Shown: positions 11,851 to 60,593 of the stretch, piece by piece
Numbering within the stretch: position 1 is the stretch's first letter
Layout of the letters: every line of letters begins with the position of its first letter
Virus record (IMG/VR): IMGVR_UViG_3300013099_000018
Coordinates: 40,261 to 104,260 of that record
Origin: a virus
Reading direction: 5' to 3' (one strand)
DNA length: 64,000 nucleotides
The notes under the pieces: generated by a model
Seen by the model: only the letters and a program-made list of their open reading frames with translations
Databases searched by the model: none
Told to the model about the DNA's origin: nothing
Position numbers and translations under genes: made by a program

Positions 11851-11890
11851 CCCACATTATATTATTACACGTGTAATAATATAATGTGGG
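11851..11890. other. Palindrome apex, putative covalently closed hairpin terminus
   Basis: CCCACATTATATTATTACAC|GTGTAATAATATAATGTGGG, dyad at 11870/11871. Confidence 0.7.
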
Positions 11891-37398: not shown

Positions 37399-38742
37399 GT
37401 CAGCTACCCCGCCCTAAAGGGCGGAGCTTGCTCGACCTCTCCTAACGGAGAGGGAGCATCGGGACGGCTGACAAACGCCCCGTTTTGAAGAGATTTCAAA
37501 ACCCTTAACATAATATTTTTAGCACCGACAATATCTGCATGTTCTTTGAATCCACAATTCTTACATTCGAATTCTTTACCATTTCTATTTTCTTTAGCAG
37601 TGTAACCGCATACTGGACAACTTATTGATGTGCATTGCGGATTCACATAAACTACCTTACTTCCGTAGAGCTTAGCTTTGTACTCGATTAGGGTTTGAAG
37701 CTCTCTGAAACACCACTGGCTAAACAACCTTCTTTTCTCTCCCTTGAACTTAGCGTTGTTTTCTCTGAATTCTCTAATGCCTTCTAAGTCCTCCAAACCG
37801 AAAACACAAGGTGAGTTCTCTACTACAATCTTCTTAGCAACGACATGGAGGAAATTTCTAACCAGCCGTTTCTCGACTCCGCTAAGAGACAACAAACGCC
37901 TCTTAGCGGAGCGAGTGCCTTTAGCCTGAAGCTGTGAGCGTAACTTCTGATAATGGGATTTCAATCTCAAAACTTGTTGAGAGAATTCGATAAGCTTAGA
38001 TTTGCCTAAACTATCATGCAAAGCTACAAAACTATTGGAAGGTTCGTTTATATCAACTCCGACAACCTTCTTAGGCTTGAGTTCCTTATCAGGAACATCT
38101 ACAGATACAATAAGATACCAGAGCTTGTTACTCCTCTCGTAATAAAGAATGGCATCTCCGTAACCGTATTTCTCAATATATTCGTAGTGTTTGTTCCAAC
38201 CATAGTAAGGTATTTTCTTCAATCTTTCACCGATAACCGAGATTGAACAAACTCTTGGATTTAGCTTTAAATCATAGCTCCTTCTTTTAACGAGCTTAAC
38301 AATCAGTTTTTTCCTTCTAATTGGTTTTCCAATCTCTTTATAGAATAGTTCGATTAACTTCTTACGATTTCTCTTCGAGATATTAAATTTCTCAGCTAAC
38401 TGGTTAAAGACAGAATCGTAATGTTGAGCAACCTCTCTGATAACTGAAATAGCAATCTGAGACTGAAAACCATACTTCTCTTTGAGTTTGTAGTATAAAG
38501 CCTTATGCAAACTAATATGGTCAAAAACACGATTGTTAAAAGCGTATTCGCTAATTTCGTTAAATGCATCTCTATACTTTTTGGCTAAATCCAAAATCTT
38601 CTGCTTTTGCTCCTTCGTAAGTTCAAGCTTAAATTTCACAGATATTGTAACCATTCATTGAGTTGTGAAAAATTTAGATATTTAAGTGTTGCGGTACTCC
38701 TCTCCGCTTTGAAAAGCGAAATTTCCGCACCGCTATTATTTT
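37399..38742 (-). mobile_element. IS200/IS605-family TnpB-only (IS1341-like) element, 1344 bp
   Basis: right end CAAGCTCCGCCCTTTAGGGCGGGGTAGCTGAC hairpin; left-end subterminal hairpin; TTCAT immediately 5' of the left end; no TSD; no tnpA. Confidence 0.85.
37404..38654 (-). CDS. tnpB: RNA-guided endonuclease TnpB
   Basis: RuvC D-E-D in GVDIN / LEDL / HADIVGA, CPVC-CKNC Zn finger. Confidence 0.93.
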   Translation of the reverse strand: MVTISVKFKLELTKEQKQKILDLAKKYRDAFNEISEYAFNNRVFDHISLHKALYYKLKEKYGFQSQIAISVIREVAQHYDSVFNQLAEKFNISKRNRKKLIELFYKEIGKPIRRKKLIVKLVKRRSYDLKLNPRVCSISVIGERLKKIPYYGWNKHYEYIEKYGYGDAILYYERSNKLWYLIVSVDVPDKELKPKKVVGVDINEPSNSFVALHDSLGKSKLIEFSQQVLRLKSHYQKLRSQLQAKGTRSAKRRLLSLSGVEKRLVRNFLHVVAKKIVVENSPCVFGLEDLEGIREFRENNAKFKGEKRRLFSQWCFRELQTLIEYKAKLYGSKVVYVNPQCTSISCPVCGYTAKENRNGKEFECKNCGFKEHADIVGAKNIMLRVLKSLQNGAFVSRPDAPSPLGEVEQAPPFRAG

Positions 38743-39271: not shown

Positions 39272-42200
39272 ATGGCAACTGAGGTTGAGGAATTTAACAT
39301 CAATCCACAAATAATCATTCAAGCATTCGATATTGAAAAAACTTTAGAAGAGTTTAGCCTAAGCGATATCGAAGAGTTTTACATTGAATACGGTGGTGTA
39401 ACCGACCCATTAGGACAACTAGCATCGACAGTGCTAAATGCTATTGATAGGGGGTTGTCATCTGTAAAGAATGCTATATTGGGTAAAATCTCTGATGTAT
39501 ATAATACAGTCAGTAAACTACCTGGTAGAATAAGTGATGTTCTTTCAAAATTGGGTAATATAGGAGATGTTATTAATGATATATTAAATACAGTTAAAGG
39601 AATTCCAGGCAGAATAAGCGATGTTTTAAATAAAATTGGTAGTGTTGGTAGTGTTGTAAATTCTATTTTTGAAAGGGTTAAAGAACTTCCAGGCAAGGTG
39701 GGTGAAATATTAAGTAAATTAGGTAATATAGGTTCTACGGTTAAAGACATATTTGATAAGATTAAGGGTATTTATCAAAAAATAGCTGATGGATTTAAGA
39801 ATGCATTAGACAAAATACGAGATATTTACGATAAGATTAAAGAAATACCTCAAAAAATAGCTGATGGGTTTAAAGATGTCTTGAAGAATTTAGGCACTAT
39901 TGTAGACAAAGTCAAAGAAATTCCACAAAAGATAGCTAAAGGGTTTGAAGATGTTGGAAAATCTCTTAACAACATATTCGAGAAGGTAAAAGAGCTACCA
40001 GAGAAAGTCTCTCAAGGATTTGAAGAGGTTTTAAAGAACTTAGGACTTATTGTAGACAAAGTCAAAGATTTACCTCAAAAGATATCCGATGGATTTAGAA
40101 ACATATTAGATAAGGTTCGTGAAATCTTCGACAAAGTCAAAGAGTTACCACAGAAAATATCAGATGGTTTCAAAAACGTTATCGAGAATTTAAGAGGGAT
40201 AATGGATAAAGTCAAGGAGTTACCACAGAAAATAGCTGAAGGTTTTGAAAATGTAGGTAAATCCCTTAGCGGAATAATCGAGGAAGTCAAAAAGATTCCA
40301 GAAAAGATTTCAAGTTTATTTGAAGAAATTAGGAAAAAGTTTGAAGATTTTGGAAAAACTATTGGAGATATTTTCGAAGAGGTTAGAAAAATCCCTGAAA
40401 AGATAGCAAAGGGATTTGAAAATGCCAGTAAAACAATAAATAAGGTAATCGAGGAAGTCAAAAAGATTCCAGAGAAGATAAGTGAAGGATTTGGAGATAT
40501 AATTGAAAAACTTAAAATATTACCAGAATTGCCACAAAAAGTATGGCAATTCATACAACAAAACATCGTTCAACCCCTTGAAGAACATGTCGTAAAGCCT
40601 ATAAAAGCCTTCTTTGAAGACTTATGGGATAAACACATTAAACCATTCTTTGACAAATTAAGGGATATACCAACAAAAATGGCGGAAATCAGCAAAGCAT
40701 TTCAGGGATTCGTCAACCCATTAGTAGGTATAGCACAATTCTTTGACCAAATTAGGCAGAAATTCATCGATTTCATAACTAATATTCCAAATTACATTAA
40801 GTCGATAGCAGATTTCTTTGGCAATATAGCTAAAGACCCGTTGGGTTGGTTCAACGATAATGTAGTAAAGCCTTTAGCAGATGCTTTCAGTGCAATAGGT
40901 AAGTGGATATGGGAACACTTACCAGATTGGCTCAAGAATGCAATAACCACAGTACAAGATTGGTTCTCTGGAGCTAAGGATTGGATAACAAAAGGATGGA
41001 GAGACTTTGTCGATTGGGTTAGTAAGATACCAGAGCATATCCAAAACTTAGGAAACTATATCTATGATAACGCAATTAAACCATTGCAAAATTGGTTAGA
41101 TGAACAAATAATATCGCCATTTAGCGAATATATTGTTAAACCTCTTGGAGATATAGGAGCTAAAGTTTGGCAAACTCTTAGCTCAGCATTTGATAGAATT
41201 AGAAATGCTATAAGTGAATTCTTAAAAGACCCAATAGGTTTCATCGGTGGGATATTTAATTTCTTGATTAGTGGATTAAAGAAAATTGGAGAAGCTATAT
41301 GGGGCGGAATTACATCTGCTGGAGAGTGGTTCGCAAGTAAAGCTACTGAAGCATTCAACGCAATCTTTTCAAAAGTTATCAAACCTATATATGATAGTTT
41401 TGAAAACATAGGTAAATCTATAGTTAGTTTCATAAACAAACCATTCATATCTTTGGTTGGAGCAGTTAAAGGTTTAGCAGATAAAATTGCTAAAGCTACA
41501 GATGAACCTATAACCAAGCTTATTTATGACCTTTTCACACCACTGGTTAGCAATGTTGCAAAAACTATGGAAAATCATGTTATGAAATTAGTTAATAAGC
41601 TTAGTAAAGGTCAATCTGCGGGTGAGGTTATAGAATCACTACAGCTTACTGGATTGCTTTATGGTTCGATAGTTCTCAATCAGTATTTGTTTAGAGCAAT
41701 ATCGTTAGGGTTACATGCTTTAGCTTCAGCTTTTGACAAATACAATTGGGAAATGTTTATTGGATGGAGAGTAAAGGTAAAGGGAGAGCATGGATTCAGA
41801 TTCGTTCCAGCAGGTGTTGGTGTTAGGCAAGCTATAGGAGATTCTACGTTAGTTCAACAAGCAATTCCAATTTACGTTGGATTAAACTTAGGTGGAACTT
41901 TGAGACACATTGCAAAAGAAATGAAAAACTATGCAGATGAGTGGGGTAGAGCAGTTCTATATGGTTATGCAATTTGGCTATCACAACCCATGATGCGTTT
42001 GGCAAGTTCAATGTTTAGAAATATGTTACCTATTGAACTACCGTCATTATCCGAGCTTAGAACTATAACAAGGAGACACATGCCAATCAAAGAGAAATTC
42101 GAACAACACCTAGAAACTATGAGAAGGTATCTTGCGTTATATGGTTACAACGATGAAGTCGTGGCATGGTTGACAACTCCAATAACAGAGAAAGGTTGGT

Positions 42201-46247: not shown

Positions 46248-49200
46248 ATGAAAACAATCTATTACTTATATCCAATACGCAACAAGGTTAGCTTTACCTT
46301 TATATCTAAGCAACACATTAGGTATCTAAAGCAAAAGTTAAAGAACAATGTAAAAATAATAGAAACAGATGTAGACACTTTTGACCCTTCTGCATGGGGG
46401 TTTAACCGTAAACTTATACTCCATCCACTCTTTTATCCATTCTTCGAAGGAGTAAGTAAAGAAGCTAATGCCAAAATAAGTAAACTTAACCAATGCCTCA
46501 ACAAAGGTTTCAAGATTATAGCTTTCGATACGGCAGATTCTGACAGAATTTCCGAAAAAGCAGTAGATTTAGCTAATAAAGTTGAAGCAATAATAGTTCC
46601 ATCTAACTTTGCCAAGAAAGCATTTGTAGATAGTGGCGTATATAAACCAGTTCACGTAGTACCTCATGGAATTCCAGATGAGTTTATGGTTAATGGTAAA
46701 ACAATAACTCATCCAGATTTGGCTAAGCTCAAAGAATTCAAGGAGAAAAACAAATTCATACTTGTTCATTTCAATGTTACACATTGCTATGATGAAGAAA
46801 CGAGAATCCTCACTAAGGAAGGTTTCAAAAAATGGAATGAGATATCCAAAGATGACGAAATTGCCACTTTCAACCTAAAGACTGGTGAATTAGAGTATCA
46901 GAAACCAGAAGAGATATTTATATACGAATATAAAGGTAAGATGATTCATTTCAAAGGACAACACTATGACCTCTTAGTTACTCCAAACCACAGAATGGTA
47001 GTTAGAAAGTCAAGACGGTATGTAGCTCCACAAAACAGAAATAAGGTTAGAGAATGGAAAATTAAAGAAGCATTCGAATTACTAATCAATCGCAATTGGG
47101 TTAAATATGAAATTCCAAGAGTGGTTAAATGGAAAGGTGTTCACAAAGAATATTTCGAGATTGATAAGAAATTGAACGAGAAACTACATTGCAATGTTAG
47201 ATATAAGCATGATAAATTGCCTATAAAACCATTTCTAAGGTTCTTGGGATGGTTCATATCGGAAGGACAAGCAAGATACAATGAACATAACCATGAAGTT
47301 TTTATAGCGATTTGGAACAACAAGGGTGAATACTTGAAAGAAATAGCAGAAACTATAAAGGAGTTGGGCTATCATCCAGTTATAGATTACAATAAGAAAT
47401 GCGTAATAGTTAGTTCAGTTCAACTATACGAAATCATCAAAGCACTTAGATTACCAGTTCACCCAGAGGTTAAAGGTAAGAAAGCTCATCTAAAGTTTGT
47501 TCCAGATTTCATAAAGGAACTTTCTCCAGAGCTTATAAAAGAGTTTCTTATGGCACTATGGAAAGGAGATGGAACTTTCTATAAAACAAAGGATGGAAAA
47601 ACCATACCATTGAAATATTCTACAACAAGTAAAAAGCTTGCAGAGGATATAGCTGAACTATGCTTGAAATGTGGATATGCTGTGAGTATAAATGTTGATG
47701 ATTGTGTAAAAAGACTTAATAAAGGGCATCATCCACTATATAATGTCGTAGTTTCGGTTAGATATGCTAATCCAAGTATGAATAACAAACCAGAAGTCAT
47801 AGATTACGAAGGAATAGTTTGGTGTGTCAAAGTTCCAAATGGGGCGGTTATAGTTGAGAGAAATGGCAAAATCGTAGTTTCTGGAAACTCAGGATTCCGT
47901 AAGGGTTGCGATTTATTCGCAAAAGCTATGTCTATCGTTCAAAAGGAGAATCCAAATATCATAATTTTGGCAAAGAGGCTTGAAGGATTAGACCCATACT
48001 TACCTCTATTAAGACAATTGAAATGCGTAGAGGTTGGCGGTTATCTTGAATTGGATGCTTATAGGCGACTTTATGACTTGACTGACATTACAGTTCTTGC
48101 ATCACGAGGGGGAGGGTTTGAGTGCGTTCCACCAGATACAAAGATAATATGCTACGATGGAGTCAAGCCAATCTCAGAAGTGAAAGAGGGAGATTTAGTT
48201 CTAACACATAAGGGAAGGTTTAGAAAGGTTACAAGAGTGTTTAAGAGACATTACAAAGGTAAGATTATAGAGATAATACCTTATGGTTTCTCTAAAGTTA
48301 GCATCAAATTAACACCAGAGCATCCAGTTTTAGCTATAATTAGGAAAGGCAATGCAAGGAACTCAATTAACTCTAACTTAGAATGGGTAGAAGCTAAGGA
48401 GTTGAAAAAAGGAGATTTTGTCGTATTTCCAATACCATCAAACAATTGTGAGAATATAGTCTATGATTTAGCAGAATTCTCTAATGATGGTAGTTTAGTA
48501 GTTGAGGATGAGTGGATATACTACAATAGGACAGGTTCTCCGAGATTTACAGAAATCAGCTACAAAGATATAGAAAAGCTAACTAATGAAACAAAGAAAA
48601 TAGTTTGTAAAGCTGTTAAAGCTTACAAAGGTGAATTGAATACGAATTCTGATAGGGTAAAGAAAGTTGTAGAGTTTCTAAGAAAGATAAACTATGAACC
48701 TCAATATGTAAAAATAAAGAGATTCGTTAAATTTGATAAATACTTGGCAAAGGTTATAGGATATTACTTAGCAGAAGGGAGTATTTCAGCAAAAGGACGT
48801 GCAGTGGAGTTCAGTTTTGGTGAAGAACCAGAACTTGTATTAGATTTAGTAAATGCAATAATACATGCTTTCAATTATATACCATCGGTAAAGCAATACT
48901 CTGATAGCAAAGTAACAAAAGTAATCATTTCAAATAAAGTTATTGCCAAATTCTTGGAAACATTATGTGGCAAAAAAGCTCATGGTAAAAGAATTCCATT
49001 AGATTGTTACAGGTTGGATTTAGACACAATATCATGGCTAGTATGGTCAATGATACTTGGAGATGGATGCGTTAAAGATAATCTCATAAGATATGCTACG
49101 GTTTGCGATAATCTTGCTTTTGGAATCTACACATTGTTAGTTAAACTTGGATATAAACCAAGAATCGAATGTCTTGTCCAAAGAACATATATTAGACCAA

Positions 49201-49796
49201 GCCATAAATTCGCTGAGAGTAAAATATGGGAAATTGAAGTAACATTACCTAACAAAACCAATGGTAAAAACCCATCTAATAATCCATTAATACCAAGAAA
49301 AGAGGATTACATTTTACATAGCAATAAGAGGTATCTTGATTTCAAGAGGGGGTTTATGATTTCAATAATCAGAGATATGAAAATCGTAGATTACGATGGC
49401 TATGTTTATAACCTTGAAGTCGAAGAAGACAATAGCTATGTTGCTAATTTAGTAACAGTTCACAATTGTAACGCATTAGAATCATTGGCGAGAGGAGTAC
49501 CAACAATAGTTCCAAAAGCTGGTTGTTTCTTAGATTACATTAAATACGCTATACCAGTCAAAGTTACGAAAAACAAACCAATAGTTCTACCAGATAACCC
49601 TATCCACGTAGGAAAGGGGTGGGAAATCGATGTTGATGAGCTTGCAAAGACAATTCTTAAAGTTGCAGATAACTTGAGCAAATACAAAAGAACTGCAAAA
49701 AGGAACATGAAAAAGATTTGGAAAGAATACAGTTGGAGAAGAATTGTAGATAAAATTATCAAAATATTAGTTGAATACGATTTCATTAAAGTTTAG
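46248..49796 (+). CDS. GT-B glycosyltransferase with two inteins (spliced product about 366 aa)
   Basis: VPS, VPHG, RKG, SRGGGFE|C..LE extein motifs. Confidence 0.9.
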   Translation: MKTIYYLYPIRNKVSFTFISKQHIRYLKQKLKNNVKIIETDVDTFDPSAWGFNRKLILHPLFYPFFEGVSKEANAKISKLNQCLNKGFKIIAFDTADSDRISEKAVDLANKVEAIIVPSNFAKKAFVDSGVYKPVHVVPHGIPDEFMVNGKTITHPDLAKLKEFKEKNKFILVHFNVTHCYDEETRILTKEGFKKWNEISKDDEIATFNLKTGELEYQKPEEIFIYEYKGKMIHFKGQHYDLLVTPNHRMVVRKSRRYVAPQNRNKVREWKIKEAFELLINRNWVKYEIPRVVKWKGVHKEYFEIDKKLNEKLHCNVRYKHDKLPIKPFLRFLGWFISEGQARYNEHNHEVFIAIWNNKGEYLKEIAETIKELGYHPVIDYNKKCVIVSSVQLYEIIKALRLPVHPEVKGKKAHLKFVPDFIKELSPELIKEFLMALWKGDGTFYKTKDGKTIPLKYSTTSKKLAEDIAELCLKCGYAVSINVDDCVKRLNKGHHPLYNVVVSVRYANPSMNNKPEVIDYEGIVWCVKVPNGAVIVERNGKIVVSGNSGFRKGCDLFAKAMSIVQKENPNIIILAKRLEGLDPYLPLLRQLKCVEVGGYLELDAYRRLYDLTDITVLASRGGGFECVPPDTKIICYDGVKPISEVKEGDLVLTHKGRFRKVTRVFKRHYKGKIIEIIPYGFSKVSIKLTPEHPVLAIIRKGNARNSINSNLEWVEAKELKKGDFVVFPIPSNNCENIVYDLAEFSNDGSLVVEDEWIYYNRTGSPRFTEISYKDIEKLTNETKKIVCKAVKAYKGELNTNSDRVKKVVEFLRKINYEPQYVKIKRFVKFDKYLAKVIGYYLAEGSISAKGRAVEFSFGEEPELVLDLVNAIIHAFNYIPSVKQYSDSKVTKVIISNKVIAKFLETLCGKKAHGKRIPLDCYRLDLDTISWLVWSMILGDGCVKDNLIRYATVCDNLAFGIYTLLVKLGYKPRIECLVQRTYIRPSHKFAESKIWEIEVTLPNKTNGKNPSNNPLIPRKEDYILHSNKRYLDFKRGFMISIIRDMKIVDYDGYVYNLEVEEDNSYVANLVTVHNCNALESLARGVPTIVPKAGCFLDYIKYAIPVKVTKNKPIVLPDNPIHVGKGWEIDVDELAKTILKVADNLSKYKRTAKRNMKKIWKEYSWRRIVDKIIKILVEYDFIKV
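46785..47888 (+). mobile_element. Intein 1 (368 aa) with LAGLIDADG endonuclease
   Basis: H|CYDEETRILT ... TPNH ... LGWFISEG ... GDG ... VVSGN|S. Confidence 0.92.
48123..49466 (+). mobile_element. Intein 2 (448 aa) with LAGLIDADG endonuclease
   Basis: E|CVPPDT ... TPEHP ... GYYLAEG ... GDG ... VYNLEV ... TVHN|C. Confidence 0.93.
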
Positions 49797-56338: not shown

Positions 56339-57916
56339 ATGAACGAGAAGGGGAAGGTTAAGTCCACCTTCATCATAACGAAATTCAAAGACCCTGAAGG
56401 TTTGGTAGAGAGATTCGCAAGGATTGGTAAGCCTTTAGATGTCTTAAAACGAATGTTCGCCAAGTATTTCATTGAAGAGAAAGTCATACATGGTAACATT
56501 TTCCTCAACGAAGGAATAAACCTTATCTGGACAGCAGTCTGTGGTGGTAGTTATACACCATTTGACCATGACCATGCTCACATTGGTGTAGGAGATGGAA
56601 CTCAACCAGCAGATGCAACACAAACGGGGTTACAAGGAACTAACAAATACTACAAAGGTATGGATGAAGGTTATCCACAATATGGAACTGACCAGAAAGC
56701 CGTATTTCGTGCCACTTTTGGTGGAACGGAGGCTAACTTCTGCTACACACCTGACCATGAGGTTCTAACAATCGAAGGATGGAAACCGATTGCAGATGTT
56801 AATATAGGAGACTTAGTAGCAGTCATAAAGCCAAACGGAGCGATAACATATCTACCAGTTGTAGATAAGACAATCTTCCACCACAGAGGTTATATCTACG
56901 AGATAGAGAACGAGAGAGTTAGCTTAGCGGTTTCACCAGAACACAAGGTTTACGTTAGAAACGATTGGTGGAGAAGAAGAGGAGAAGGATTTGACCTCAT
57001 AGAGATAGAAAGGCTTGAGAAGGGAACATGGGAAATGAAAAAAGACGGATTATGGTCTGGATTGAAACCAAGAGAGTTCGTAATAGAAGGAATCCACAGC
57101 AAGTTCCATCCTTGGCTTGAAGATGCTATATATTTACCAGTAGAACCATTCGTAAAGCTCTTAGGATACATATTGAGCGAAGGCTACGTAATGCAAAATT
57201 CAGTAGTAATTTGCCAGAATAAGGACAAGCATCCTGAAATCTACAATGACATCATCGAGACAATCAAGGAGTGTGGATTTACTCCAAAAGTGTATAATGG
57301 TATAATGATATATATAAACGATAAAAGACTCGCTCAATTCATCAAGAAATATTGCTACGTAGATGGAACAAGAGCATACAACAAGAAGATACCAGATTTC
57401 GTCAAGTGGCTAACGCCTGAGCTTATAGAAACATTCATTGATGCTTTCATAAAAGGAGATGGACATTTAAAGGATGGTGTTACACCGATAATCTACACGA
57501 CATCACCATACATTAGAGACGGAATACAAGAATTAGCATTGAAGATAGGTCTATGTGCTGATTGGAAAGCGATTAACAACACAAAGAGCTTCAGCAACAG
57601 AACCAAGTATGTCATTTCAATCGTTAGAAGATACAAGACACCATATGTTGTCGTTAAAAGAGATGACAAAAGGAGAAGAGAGCTAAAGAAGATACCATAC
57701 GATGGGCTATTAGTTGGTATAGCAGTCCCAGAATATCATACTCTCTACGTGAGGAGACACGGAAAGGCAGTCTGGAGTGGAAATTCGTGGAATGAATGGA
57801 CAGTGGCTAATGGTGCTTCAGATGATGCAATAAATCTTAATCGTAAGGTTGAGAGCTTAGGAACGAAAGCAGAAGGAACAACATGGATATTCACTGTTGA
57901 GTTGAGTTTAAGCTGA
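56339..57916 (+). CDS. putative structural protein (177-aa extein) containing an intein
   Basis: HIGVGDGT...ATFGGTEANF|SWNEW...LNRKVESLGTK. Confidence 0.75.
   Translation: MNEKGKVKSTFIITKFKDPEGLVERFARIGKPLDVLKRMFAKYFIEEKVIHGNIFLNEGINLIWTAVCGGSYTPFDHDHAHIGVGDGTQPADATQTGLQGTNKYYKGMDEGYPQYGTDQKAVFRATFGGTEANFCYTPDHEVLTIEGWKPIADVNIGDLVAVIKPNGAITYLPVVDKTIFHHRGYIYEIENERVSLAVSPEHKVYVRNDWWRRRGEGFDLIEIERLEKGTWEMKKDGLWSGLKPREFVIEGIHSKFHPWLEDAIYLPVEPFVKLLGYILSEGYVMQNSVVICQNKDKHPEIYNDIIETIKECGFTPKVYNGIMIYINDKRLAQFIKKYCYVDGTRAYNKKIPDFVKWLTPELIETFIDAFIKGDGHLKDGVTPIIYTTSPYIRDGIQELALKIGLCADWKAINNTKSFSNRTKYVISIVRRYKTPYVVVKRDDKRRRELKKIPYDGLLVGIAVPEYHTLYVRRHGKAVWSGNSWNEWTVANGASDDAINLNRKVESLGTKAEGTTWIFTVELSLS
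56741..57784 (+). mobile_element. Intein 3 (348 aa) with LAGLIDADG endonuclease
   Basis: F|CYTPDHEVLT ... SPEH ... LGYILSEG ... GDG ... VWSGN|S. Confidence 0.9.
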
Positions 57917-58301: not shown

Positions 58302-60593
58302 ATGAAAATCGCATACTATTCAGTAGCACCATTCGTAAGCTCTGGTTTCGGAGTTTGCACTCGCTACTTAGCATATCATCTCGCAAAGAAACACGAAGTG
58401 GACATCTATTCTTACTTTGGTTACGAAGGTGCAGAAATCCCGTTTATGATTGAAGATAGGCAAGTTAAAATCATAGGTGGAAATGGAACATTAGTTCATC
58501 CTGTATTCTTCGAAAGATACAACGAATACGATGTTCAAATATTACACTTTGACGGATGGGTAATCTCAAGGCAAATAGCAAAACTTCAAGATGCCAACAT
58601 CATACATTGGTGTGTTGAAGGTGATACGGAAGTCATAACTCCAAATGGCATCAAAAAGATTAGGGATTTAACTATAGAGGATAGAGTTTTGGGATTTGAT
58701 TTTGAGGTTGGCAAAGTAGTTTGGACAAAAGTCTTAGCAATTCATATTATACCAACGGATGAAGATTTAGTGGTTATAGAGTTTGAAGATGGTTCTAAAT
58801 TGAAATGCACGGAAGACCATGAAATCTATACGATTGATGGTTGGAAGCAAGCCTCAGATTTGAGAGTAGGTGATAGAGTTGTTGGGTTACATATTTATAG
58901 ACCATCGACCAAAATAACTATTGATGAAGAGGAGATGGACAGAGCAAGAAGTGGAATTCTTAAAGAGAAATTATACGAAAATGACTGTAGAGCAAATAGC
59001 AAAAGCATTGAACAGGTCGGAGAAAGCAGTAATCCGCAAAGCAACAAGATTGGGTTTAGTAAAGAGCATGTCGGATTTAATTACAACCAAAGGAACGAAA
59101 ATAGAGCAATCTATTGCGAAAATGGAGAAAGTAATTCAGAATTTAGAAGAGTGGCAAAAGGGTTATCTTGCGGGATTTCTGGATGGAGAGGGGACAATAA
59201 CTATAACTGTGGTGAAACATTACAACAAGCAAAGGAAACCGAGATACTTATTGAATCCTCACATAGCATTTGTGAACACGCACAAAGAAACCATAGAGAC
59301 AATTGCCAAATGGTTGGATGTGAAACATTGGAAAGGACAACGGGAAGGGACAAAAGCGAAGAGACCAATATACAGAATTCAAATTCATGGATACAAAGTT
59401 TACCCAATTCTGAAAGAGTTACGCAAGTATCTAATCACAAAGAGAAAACGTGCAGAGTTGGTGTTGAAATTCTTGGAATCGAGAATGAAACAAAAATACA
59501 AAGATGCATACACGGAAGAGGAATTGAGAATTTGGGAAGAGGTAAAGAAATTACAAACTGCAAGAAGGTCATCAAAATATATCGTGAGAAAAACATCGAA
59601 GGGATTGTATATGATATTACCACAACAACAGGAAACTATTTCGCAAACAAAGTCTTGATTCATAATTGCATCTTAGACCATGACCCTGTCCAAAGGAGTT
59701 ACATACCGATGATGCGTTCCGAAGGTGTAAAACTCCTCGTTCCGATGACCAATTGGGGTAAAAAGATACTTGAACAAAGTAGAGATGTTCCAAAGCACAA
59801 GATTACAGAACCAATACCTCACGGTGCTGACCCAAACATCTACTATCCAGAGAAAGACCCTCAAGTGGATTTCATACCAGATGATATAGATTTCTTTGTC
59901 GTAGCAGTTGTAGATAACAATGGGATAAGAGAGAATGTTCCAGAAATCATAGAGGCTTTCGCTCTCTTCCTAAGAGATGTTGAGCCAAATGCATTTCTCT
60001 ACATTAACACAGAACCGATAAAATACGGTGGATATAACCTCTATGAAATCATAGATGCGATTGAAGATAAATACAACATAAAGGTAAGGGATAAGGTCAT
60101 GTTCAAGGTTACGAATGGTTATCTACCGTCTGAAATAATGAGAAAGCTCTATTGCAAGGCTAATTGCTTAGTAAACACTGTAAAAGGAGGCTCATTTGAG
60201 ATTGTGTTGGTAGAGAGTGGCTTATGCGAAACTCCAGCAATAGCTACGGATTGGGGAGCAACGGGAGAATTGCTTGGCGAAGAAGTCTACGAGATTACAG
60301 CAAATGTAATCTACAAGGAAAGAGGCTTAGGAATCAAACCAGTAGCGTTCATGTGGATGAATAGGACATCCTCAAGACAAGCTGTGCTTAACGTAGAAGA
60401 TATAGCCTTTGCACTCTGGTATTACTACTCGTATCCAGAAAGAGCCAAGAAGCACGGGAGAAACATGAGAAAATGGGTTCTCGAAAACGCAACATGGGAC
60501 ATCGTAGGAGAGAAATGGCTTAAGCTCTTAGACGACATCGAAGAGAATGGCTTTCCAGAGCAAAAAGATATTGAAGTTGTAAGTAATATCTAA
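58302..60593 (+). CDS. GT-B glycosyltransferase with one intein (spliced product about 411 aa)
   Basis: SGFG, PHG, REN, GSFEIVLVES, TPAIAT. Confidence 0.88.
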   Translation: MKIAYYSVAPFVSSGFGVCTRYLAYHLAKKHEVDIYSYFGYEGAEIPFMIEDRQVKIIGGNGTLVHPVFFERYNEYDVQILHFDGWVISRQIAKLQDANIIHWCVEGDTEVITPNGIKKIRDLTIEDRVLGFDFEVGKVVWTKVLAIHIIPTDEDLVVIEFEDGSKLKCTEDHEIYTIDGWKQASDLRVGDRVVGLHIYRPSTKITIDEEEMDRARSGILKEKLYENDCRANSKSIEQVGESSNPQSNKIGFSKEHVGFNYNQRNENRAIYCENGESNSEFRRVAKGLSCGISGWRGDNNYNCGETLQQAKETEILIESSHSICEHAQRNHRDNCQMVGCETLERTTGRDKSEETNIQNSNSWIQSLPNSERVTQVSNHKEKTCRVGVEILGIENETKIQRCIHGRGIENLGRGKEITNCKKVIKIYREKNIEGIVYDITTTTGNYFANKVLIHNCILDHDPVQRSYIPMMRSEGVKLLVPMTNWGKKILEQSRDVPKHKITEPIPHGADPNIYYPEKDPQVDFIPDDIDFFVVAVVDNNGIRENVPEIIEAFALFLRDVEPNAFLYINTEPIKYGGYNLYEIIDAIEDKYNIKVRDKVMFKVTNGYLPSEIMRKLYCKANCLVNTVKGGSFEIVLVESGLCETPAIATDWGATGELLGEEVYEITANVIYKERGLGIKPVAFMWMNRTSSRQAVLNVEDIAFALWYYYSYPERAKKHGRNMRKWVLENATWDIVGEKWLKLLDDIEENGFPEQKDIEVVSNI
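58611..59666 (+). mobile_element. Intein 4 (352 aa): Hint splicing blocks with a non-endonuclease in-frame linker
   Basis: W|CVEGDT ... CTEDH ... VYDITT..GNYFAN.VLIHN|C. Confidence 0.9.
58921..59658 (+). CDS. LAGLIDADG homing endonuclease with N-terminal HTH, nested in the +1 frame of intein 4 (probable start ATG 58924)
   Basis: WTEQEVEFL...IAKALNRS..AV HTH; GYLAGFLDGEGTI; TTTATA box about 25 nt upstream. Confidence 0.88.
   Translation: MMKRRWTEQEVEFLKRNYTKMTVEQIAKALNRSEKAVIRKATRLGLVKSMSDLITTKGTKIEQSIAKMEKVIQNLEEWQKGYLAGFLDGEGTITITVVKHYNKQRKPRYLLNPHIAFVNTHKETIETIAKWLDVKHWKGQREGTKAKRPIYRIQIHGYKVYPILKELRKYLITKRKRAELVLKFLESRMKQKYKDAYTEEELRIWEEVKKLQTARRSSKYIVRKTSKGLYMILPQQQETISQTKS

Follow-up and report, generated by a model that had tools for sequence, protein, structure and literature searches.

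Can an intein keep its homing endonuclease in a reading frame other than its own, and what would then hold both frames open? The question is raised by a stretch of viral DNA of 64,000 nucleotides (positions 40,261 to 104,260 of the IMG/VR record IMGVR_UViG_3300013099_000018; hereafter the window, whose own numbering is used throughout). In this window, a glycosyltransferase gene carries an intein at 58611-59666 whose middle looks featureless when read with the host gene, and the +1 frame of the same DNA encodes a LAGLIDADG protein. An earlier reading of the letters alone, made without database searches (the sequence-only reading), had suggested that a free-standing endonuclease gene invaded a mini-intein out of frame. 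Our analyses of the architecture of the locus and of the selection acting on it indicate that this is very probably a mobile intein whose two parts lie in two reading frames.

Two reading frames within one intein

The host open reading frame (ORF; 58302-60593, plus strand) encodes a glycosyltransferase precursor of 763 aa, with weak GT1 Pfam matches in its C-extein, which is predicted to become a protein of 411 aa after splicing. The intein occupies residues 104-455 of the precursor (352 codons, 1056 nt), and its motifs are C104 as Cys1, T170-E-D-H173 as block B, H454-N455, and C456 as the +1 Cys. Intein_splicing of Pfam matched residues 115-455 above its curated cut-off (6.8e-15), although only through the two ends, with the middle unmatched, and Hint matched at 2e-7. 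By its sequence, 58611-59666 is a class-1 intein with intact motifs, in line with the normal splicing blocks noted in the sequence-only reading; splicing itself is predicted, given these motifs and the purifying selection seen on the blocks. A word-based search with the whole precursor returned only its own cluster and one weak match to an RNR intein, and a scan with a degenerate DNA pattern for intein block G gave no match.

The extent of the element could be read from alleles that lack it. A metagenome scan recovered 21 loci with the same glycosyltransferase gene, none of which has the intein at 58611-59666; the 16 alleles readable through the site join exactly at ...NIIHW/CILD..., without exactly the 1056 nt, which confirms the intein boundaries given in the sequence-only reading. 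In nucleotide alignments of the intein-less loci, gene position ~309 is joined to position 1366, and the complete genes among these loci encode 411 aa, apart from L017 with 404 aa and L020, whose 803 aa include another intein. Contigs skipping 1056-1086 nt were present in the same runs as intein-bearing contigs, and occupied and empty alleles of the gene, 80-98% identical in nucleotides, share the same samples, a patchy presence. The 1056-nt stretch itself is present in 20 runs from as many studies, no RNA run among them; most are metagenomes of hydrothermal vents and sediments, dated 2017 to 2025. Logan contigs from four runs of four studies cross the intein with no gap and no indel within 58611-59666, including one record (X3 record 2) that spans 58584-59687 with 7 mismatches and 0 gaps, and a divergent allele, P0013 (90% identical), has exactly the same length, again without indels.

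Between the splicing blocks, the host frame encodes a linker of strongly hydrophilic character. Residues 201-425 have a grand average of hydropathy (GRAVY) of -1.04, and 24% of them are hydrophobic, as against 70% that are polar or charged; the remaining regions of the precursor have GRAVY values of -0.27 to 0.01 and are 40-50% hydrophobic. A Pfam search with the linker gave no match, in agreement with the earlier remark that the host-frame middle lacks an endonuclease motif, and the linker behaves as unconstrained filler. An AlphaFold (AF2) model of the host-frame intein had no structure at residues 122-340, which is a weak contrast only, given its overall predicted local distance difference test (pLDDT) score of 35 and a shallow alignment of 7 rows.

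The +1 frame of the same DNA encodes a protein with an N-terminal helix-turn-helix (HTH) domain and a single LAGLIDADG motif (Table 1), and here too the sequence-only reading was right: Pfam LAGLIDADG_1 matched residues 82-175 at 1.1e-6 (29.9 bits versus a cut-off of 23.1), in addition to the HTH models. With the nuclease as query, an exhaustive HMMER search gave 6499 relatives, of which 928 lie below 1e-10. The full-length matches, covering query residues 2-224, measure 240-290 aa and combine a LAGLIDADG domain with one or two HTH repeats, whereas the long proteins among the relatives match through HTH repeats only; the same repeat is found one to many times in the relatives. That the best relatives are of free-standing size fits the proposed invasion of a mini-intein by a free-standing nuclease gene. 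Among 37 aligned family members, D87 and G90 never vary, while Y81, A83, L163, L170, K173 and R187 hardly do, and the window nuclease keeps all of them. The family profile matched the window with 235.8 bits (E 1.9e-71) and found no free-standing paralogue of the nuclease in the virus; single-protein scans of viral contigs with the nuclease and with the C-extein gave no match.

When compared with PDB, the family profile matched I-MsoI, I-CreI and I-CvuI at about 1e-13. The AF2 model of the nuclease reached a pLDDT of 89 and a predicted template modelling (pTM) score of 0.83, and its best Foldseek matches were I-CvuI, I-MsoI and I-CreI (TMt ~0.7, identity 16-22%). Its core follows the alpha-beta-beta-alpha-beta-beta-alpha order (helix 76-88, strands 91-100 and 106-118, helix 121-130, strands 137-140 and 149-155, helix 156-169), preceded by the HTH helices at 7-16, 22-29 and 33-42. 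According to this model, the nested gene product is a single-motif LAGLIDADG enzyme of the I-CreI/I-MsoI type with an added N-terminal HTH. I-CreI, I-MsoI and I-CvuI have the fold and the single LAGLIDADG motif in common with it, but they sit in group I introns and are without the N-terminal HTH, whereas the window nuclease sits in an intein. Single-motif LAGLIDADG enzymes form homodimers, and the nested nuclease is, by analogy, presumably homodimeric.

The way in which the two coding regions are laid over each other appears economical. In most members the family core ends near residue 212 (~nt 59560), and the last 32 residues of the window nuclease form a non-conserved tail with pLDDT 61-70. 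Given that the nuclease ATG closely follows the N-terminal splicing domain and that only this tail overlaps blocks F and G, whose host-frame residues are conserved between alleles, almost every stretch of the intein is constrained in one frame only.

Selection in the two frames

Across the intein, frame 0 contains no stop codon, frame +1 contains 12, all of them outside 58921-59655, and frame +2 contains 45; both frames are therefore open over the nested ORF, as had been stated from the letters. We assessed how surprising this is by keeping the nuclease protein fixed, permuting its synonymous codons and counting host-frame stops. The permutations gave a mean of 9.5 host-frame stops and none of 20,000 was stop-free, compared with 0 stops observed. 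The openness of the host frame is selected. The phase matters as well. The nuclease wobble position is host codon position 1, so every host stop (T/AA, T/AG or T/GA) can be removed by a silent NNT-to-NNC change, and a stop-free host frame costs the nuclease nothing for this reason. No host-frame stop was unavoidable in the +1 phase, versus four in the other sense phase, all of them TGA formed where Met is followed by an A-initial codon in the window nuclease.

The same layout was found in other viruses. IMG/VR was scanned with the nuclease family alignment, and the 80 best loci were checked for another reading frame without stops throughout the match. Of these 80, four (L024, L028, L031 and L037, with GC contents from 34% to 59%) have a much longer same-strand open frame, and in each an HTH-LAGLIDADG ORF of 222-234 aa lies over the intein middle, always in the same +1 phase as in the window. 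The shuffle test applied to these four loci predicted 6-13 stops where 0 were observed (P at most 4e-4 each). In addition, the host frame of all five overprinted inteins contains a shadow motif, ISGW..RRRG, which arises when the LAGLIDADG motif DNA (window 59175-59200) is read in the shifted frame and is the only motif that the window linker has in common with the other overprinted inteins; searches for concealed out-of-frame LAGLIDADG genes could make use of it. A tree of the nested nucleases needs 2-3 changes, but a single clade is compatible with the data under the approximately unbiased (AU) test (p 0.47), so there may have been one capture or several. The remaining loci of the 80 best had no long second same-strand frame, and their own ORFs, mostly 450-700 nt where listed, suggest small free-standing genes. 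We set aside antisense open frames over nuclease relatives in 19 IMG/VR loci, as well as a short extra sense frame in L065, as probable shadow ORFs of about the length of the nuclease ORFs themselves.

Selection per frame, a comparison that the sequence-only reading had proposed, was examined between the proteins P0001 and P0013. Host-frame residues diverge by 2.9% in the N-extein, 2.1% in the N-terminal splicing domain, 16.7% in the nuclease overlap and 9.1% in the C-extein. A minimal-change reconstruction of the overlap, in which P0013 is the one divergent allele and is known only as a host-frame protein, attributes 38 of 41 differences to one base change, and 33 of these 38 fall at host codon position 1 (the nuclease wobble position), where they alter the host residue but leave the nuclease as it is. 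The nuclease-silent share expected among host-visible non-stop single-base changes is 25-37% (binomial p about 1e-11). Variants among contigs behave similarly, those at 58628 and 58667 in the splicing domain being silent in the host frame, and those at 59280 and 59325 in the overlap being silent in the nuclease and replacing a host residue. These patterns indicate that the nuclease frame is under purifying selection and that, along the intein, selection shifts from the host frame to that of the nuclease and then returns.

Table 1 Features of the intein locus (window positions) and host genes of the four related overprinted inteins
Feature	Position	Strand	Remarks
N-terminal splicing domain (blocks A and B, T170-x-x-H173)	58611-58901	+	Read in the host frame only
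Host-frame linker, ~220 codons	58902-59561	+	Hydrophilic filler; no domain detected; constrained only to lack stops
C-terminal splicing blocks F and G (...EGIVYDITTTTGNYFANKVLIHN)	59562-59666	+	Overlap only the non-conserved nuclease tail, residues ~213-244
Nested nuclease gene	58924 (ATG; TTG at 58921)-59658	+	244 aa from ATG; stop 59656-59658
N-terminal three-helix HTH (GcrA/IF2_N/Myb-like)	58924-59073	+	Several Pfam HTH models, residues 4-54
LAGLIDADG motif GYLAGFLDGEG	59161-59193	+	Host-frame shadow reading GISGWRGD
TTTATA, candidate archaeal TATA box	58894-58899	+	Starts 30 nt before ATG 58924, inside host codons LHIYR
Left flank of putative homing site	58597-58610	+	With the first C-extein bases (from 59667) forms a 22-bp pseudo-palindrome in empty alleles
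L024			GT1 glycosyltransferase host gene; Pfam Intein_splicing
L031			GT1 glycosyltransferase host gene; Pfam Intein_splicing
L028			DUF2201 metallopeptidase/VWA host gene; insertion splits two DUF2201 domains and ends HN/C; no Pfam Hint match
L037			DUF2201 metallopeptidase/VWA host gene; weak Vint (Hint) match

Proposed expression of the nested gene and competing explanations

We surveyed start geometry upstream of 45 ORFs between 11871 and 64000. Two classes of start were apparent. Many genes have a TATA box at -40 to -46, followed by a GGTG Shine-Dalgarno (SD)-like motif ~5-10 nt before the ATG. A second, leaderless class has a TATA box at -27 to -31 and no SD motif (e.g., ORFs 20271, 25544, 29259, 56339 and, on the minus strand, 33841); TTTAWA occurs at -27 to -31 in 5 of the 45 genes versus ~0.4 expected, at a background of 0.0017 per position. 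The candidate TATA box of the nested gene has the spacing of this second class, as the sequence-only reading had described, and no SD-like motif was found within 20 nt upstream of ATG 58924. A TATA box at -30 without an SD motif fits a predicted leaderless transcript starting at ~58922-58925. Two points weigh against it, namely that TTTATA is partly dictated by conserved host codons and that a chance TATA match at the nested ATG has a probability of ~0.8%. Taking these together, we consider the internal-promoter step evenly poised.

The nuclease could also be real but translated by internal initiation on the host mRNA, with TTTATA a mere by-product of the LHIYR codons. This is a serious possibility, albeit an unlikely one. 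The position of the hexamer inside conserved host codons is what it would predict, and it draws further support from the many genes of this virus that use GGTG SD motifs and from L024, in which the nested start is preceded by an SD-like GGTG motif and not by a TATA box. At the window locus itself, however, the SD-like motif is missing, the geometry is that of the leaderless class, and the low chance of such a match speaks against a by-product, so the internal-promoter route is plausibly the more likely of the two. In L024, a low-GC relative, the motif is AGGTGAT, the SD type of these viruses, located at L024:2460-2500 ahead of the nested nuclease start. The expression route of the nested gene may differ between elements.

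A less favourable reading is that the nested gene is a dead or dying relic, the element being a mini-intein with a junk linker whose +1 ORF is open only through recent inactivation. Several observations point in this direction and count against a maintained nuclease. Intein-bearing alleles are scarce in three of the four runs: in X3, X5 and X9, contig depth summed over the intein amounts to only 1-5% of that over the exteins (the element is in the minority there, although contig depths are sums over strains and the ratio is rough). One contig variant, 59318 A>G, changes the nuclease (D132G). The selection test depends on a single divergent allele seen only through its host-frame protein, and host-silent changes, which always replace a nuclease residue, are invisible in such a comparison, so that the rate of nonsynonymous change (dN) obtained for the nuclease is a minimum. 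For P0013, the most parsimonious solution even places a stop in codon 8 of the nuclease; with ATT or ATC as the Ile215 codon the stop would vanish, and the sequence would read W-T-(K/R)-(L/S)-E, matching the W-T-x-x-E pattern of the family. Furthermore, a preprint on actinophage inteins (bioRxiv 10.1101/2025.01.02.630785) expects secondary ORFs to decay quickly after homing stops. Nevertheless, we regard a relic as improbable, since 33 of 38 changes between 90%-identical alleles are nuclease-silent, the family-invariant residues are all intact in a protein that is modelled with confidence, and the layout has been kept with intact ORFs in four distant lineages.

A maintained nuclease might still be made in frame, as a canonical intein domain, if ribosomes shifted to the +1 frame and back. 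Such shifts would restore the textbook architecture, and both frames are open where a shift would be needed. We find this very improbable: an untranslated frame 0 would have no reason to stay stop-free, yet it has 0 stops versus 9.5 expected; the nuclease has its own ATG and is homologous to free-standing proteins from residue 2-4 onwards; and its frame remains open to 8 nt before the end of the intein and overlaps blocks F and G, so the return shift would have to take place inside the ORF. Finally, an assembly or sequencing artefact, in which two compensating indels displaced an in-frame endonuclease domain, as the sequence-only reading had itself advised checking, is refuted, even though the record is oddly assembled as a 104-kb perfect fold-back, because independent contigs from four studies cross 58584-59687 without an indel, P0013 has the same length, four unrelated loci have the same layout, and an untranslated frame 0 would hold ~9.5 stops where none is seen.

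Putative homing, precedents and viral setting

The empty alleles also allowed us to look at the site that a nuclease of this kind might recognise. The pseudo-palindrome formed at the empty site (Table 1) has 7-9 of 11 symmetric positions in 14 of the 16 empty alleles, the best dyad within +/-15 nt lies exactly 2 nt upstream of the insertion point, and scores this high are reached at 0.08-1% of positions across the gene. A 22-bp pseudo-palindromic target is expected for I-CreI-type homodimers, and by this analogy the empty site is what a homodimeric LAGLIDADG enzyme cutting across the central four bp would need. At position -1 of the insertion site, Trp is replaced by Tyr in two alleles, L003 and L010. 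Another allele (L015:684-701) has ATG (Met) in place of the +1 Cys codon and has lost the symmetry (3/11); it may be a homing-immune allele, in which an intein could not splice.

We propose the following scheme, in which splicing, the promoter, dimerisation, the cleavage site and homing are inferred steps. The host mRNA would be translated straight through frame 0, giving two HINT halves (58611-58901 and 59562-59666) linked by a filler of ~220 residues, which would exist because the same DNA in the +1 frame is an intact nuclease gene. The HINT domain would then excise itself by means of Cys1, T-x-x-H, His-Asn and the +1 Cys and ligate the 411-aa enzyme. The nuclease would be made apart from the host protein, most likely from a leaderless transcript starting downstream of the TTTATA box, and would probably act as a homodimer. 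At co-infection, its cleavage target would be the 22-bp empty site in viruses that lack the intein, and repair would copy intein and nuclease together.

Parts of this design have been seen elsewhere. Dassa et al. reportedly described 'fractured genes' in 2009, in which split inteins have a free-standing endonuclease gene between their halves. These resemble the window intein in that an endonuclease gene lies between intein halves and is expressed separately (as predicted in the window), but there the host gene is divided into two ORFs joined by trans-splicing, whereas here the host frame is open, the intein contiguous and splicing predicted to occur in cis. A second comparison is the ShiLan domain, an insert in a phage methylase gene with an HNH endonuclease ORF that lies out of frame (PMC11855218). 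It likewise places an out-of-frame endonuclease ORF inside a stop-free host ORF; however, it has no splicing domain and the insert stays in the protein, whereas the window has a complete intein and predicted removal.

The closest precedents are inteins proper. Actinophage inteins with endonucleases in a separate frame have been reported, the genes concerned being endonuclease VII-like (in frame 3) or, on the antisense strand, of LAGLIDADG or Vsr-like type, and invasion of inteins by free-standing endonuclease genes, with continued transfer, has been proposed for them (bioRxiv 10.1101/2025.01.02.630785). They and the window intein have in common an intact splicing domain, a structureless host-frame middle and an out-of-frame endonuclease ORF over that middle. 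The hosts there are bacteriophages, whereas the window presents a sense-strand, +1-phase HTH and single-motif LAGLIDADG gene in an archaeal filamentous virus, and the main text of that preprint does not mention a promoter, Shine-Dalgarno sequence or ribosome binding. To judge by its title, 'The Cyanobacterial dnaX Intein Encodes an Out-of-Frame Homing Endonuclease', a 2026 preprint (bioRxiv 10.64898/2026.09.14.751524) describes a similar out-of-frame arrangement, although in a cellular replication gene, unlike the window; its text names LAGLIDADG and neither HNH nor GIY-YIG. The sequence-only reading had known of no description of this architecture, and in this respect it is superseded by the two preprints.

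The window intein accordingly adds a case to out-of-frame-endonuclease inteins that were already described, and is perhaps the first to come from a virus of archaea. What it newly contributes is its setting in an archaeal virus, a particular nuclease family that is repeatedly nested in the +1 phase, a candidate internal archaeal promoter, a selection signal that switches frames, and defined alleles of empty, occupied and possibly immune type. We put forward only tentatively the wider claim of a first overprinted intein nuclease from an archaeal virus, with a leaderless mRNA starting from a TATA box in intein codons, timing uncoupled from the host gene, and an HTH-LAGLIDADG lineage that repeatedly rides inteins in a cost-free phase. 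The locus provides unusually clean population-level evidence for a recently described and little-documented intein design, with occupied, empty and possibly immune alleles that share hydrothermal-vent samples. With it, the design also covers an archaeal filamentous virus and an I-CreI-like HTH-LAGLIDADG family, of which at least five viral genes have a member nested in the +1 phase; the case further offers a simple codon-level reason for that phase together with a concrete 22-bp candidate target. For annotation, it implies that an intact nuclease gene, suppressed by gene callers, may lie concealed in inteins described as 'mini' or 'decaying'.

Regarding the virus itself, a match to the Sulfolobus-virus coat protein domain (PF12193, 2e-8), a weak match to SFV1 VP4 and the archaeal promoter pattern point to an archaeal filamentous virus. 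The IMG/VR record of 104,260 nt is one perfect fold-back, with the intein locus on both arms (L001 and L002, 100% identity), so the real genome is ~52 kb. Accordingly, window positions 1-23740 mirror themselves around a dyad near 11870. The fold-back may represent read-through of a hairpin telomere or a replicative dimer, or else an assembly artefact.

Some glycosyltransferase alleles have a different intein of ~1.2 kb at a second site, GG/C...HN/S (L020:1976-3181 and L021:754-1959, corresponding to window ~60190-60219), with an ordinary in-frame double-motif LAGLIDADG domain, so the gene is a repeated intein target. The window contains three further inteins, two in a GT4-like gene at 46248-49796 and one in 56339-57916, all canonical and with in-frame double-motif LAGLIDADG domains. 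Four inteins within ~14 kb is dense for a virus of such size. Lastly, a TnpB/Cas12f-like ORF was found on the minus strand at 37404-38654, with matches to PF07282 (9.8e-22) and OrfB_IS605 (3e-6).

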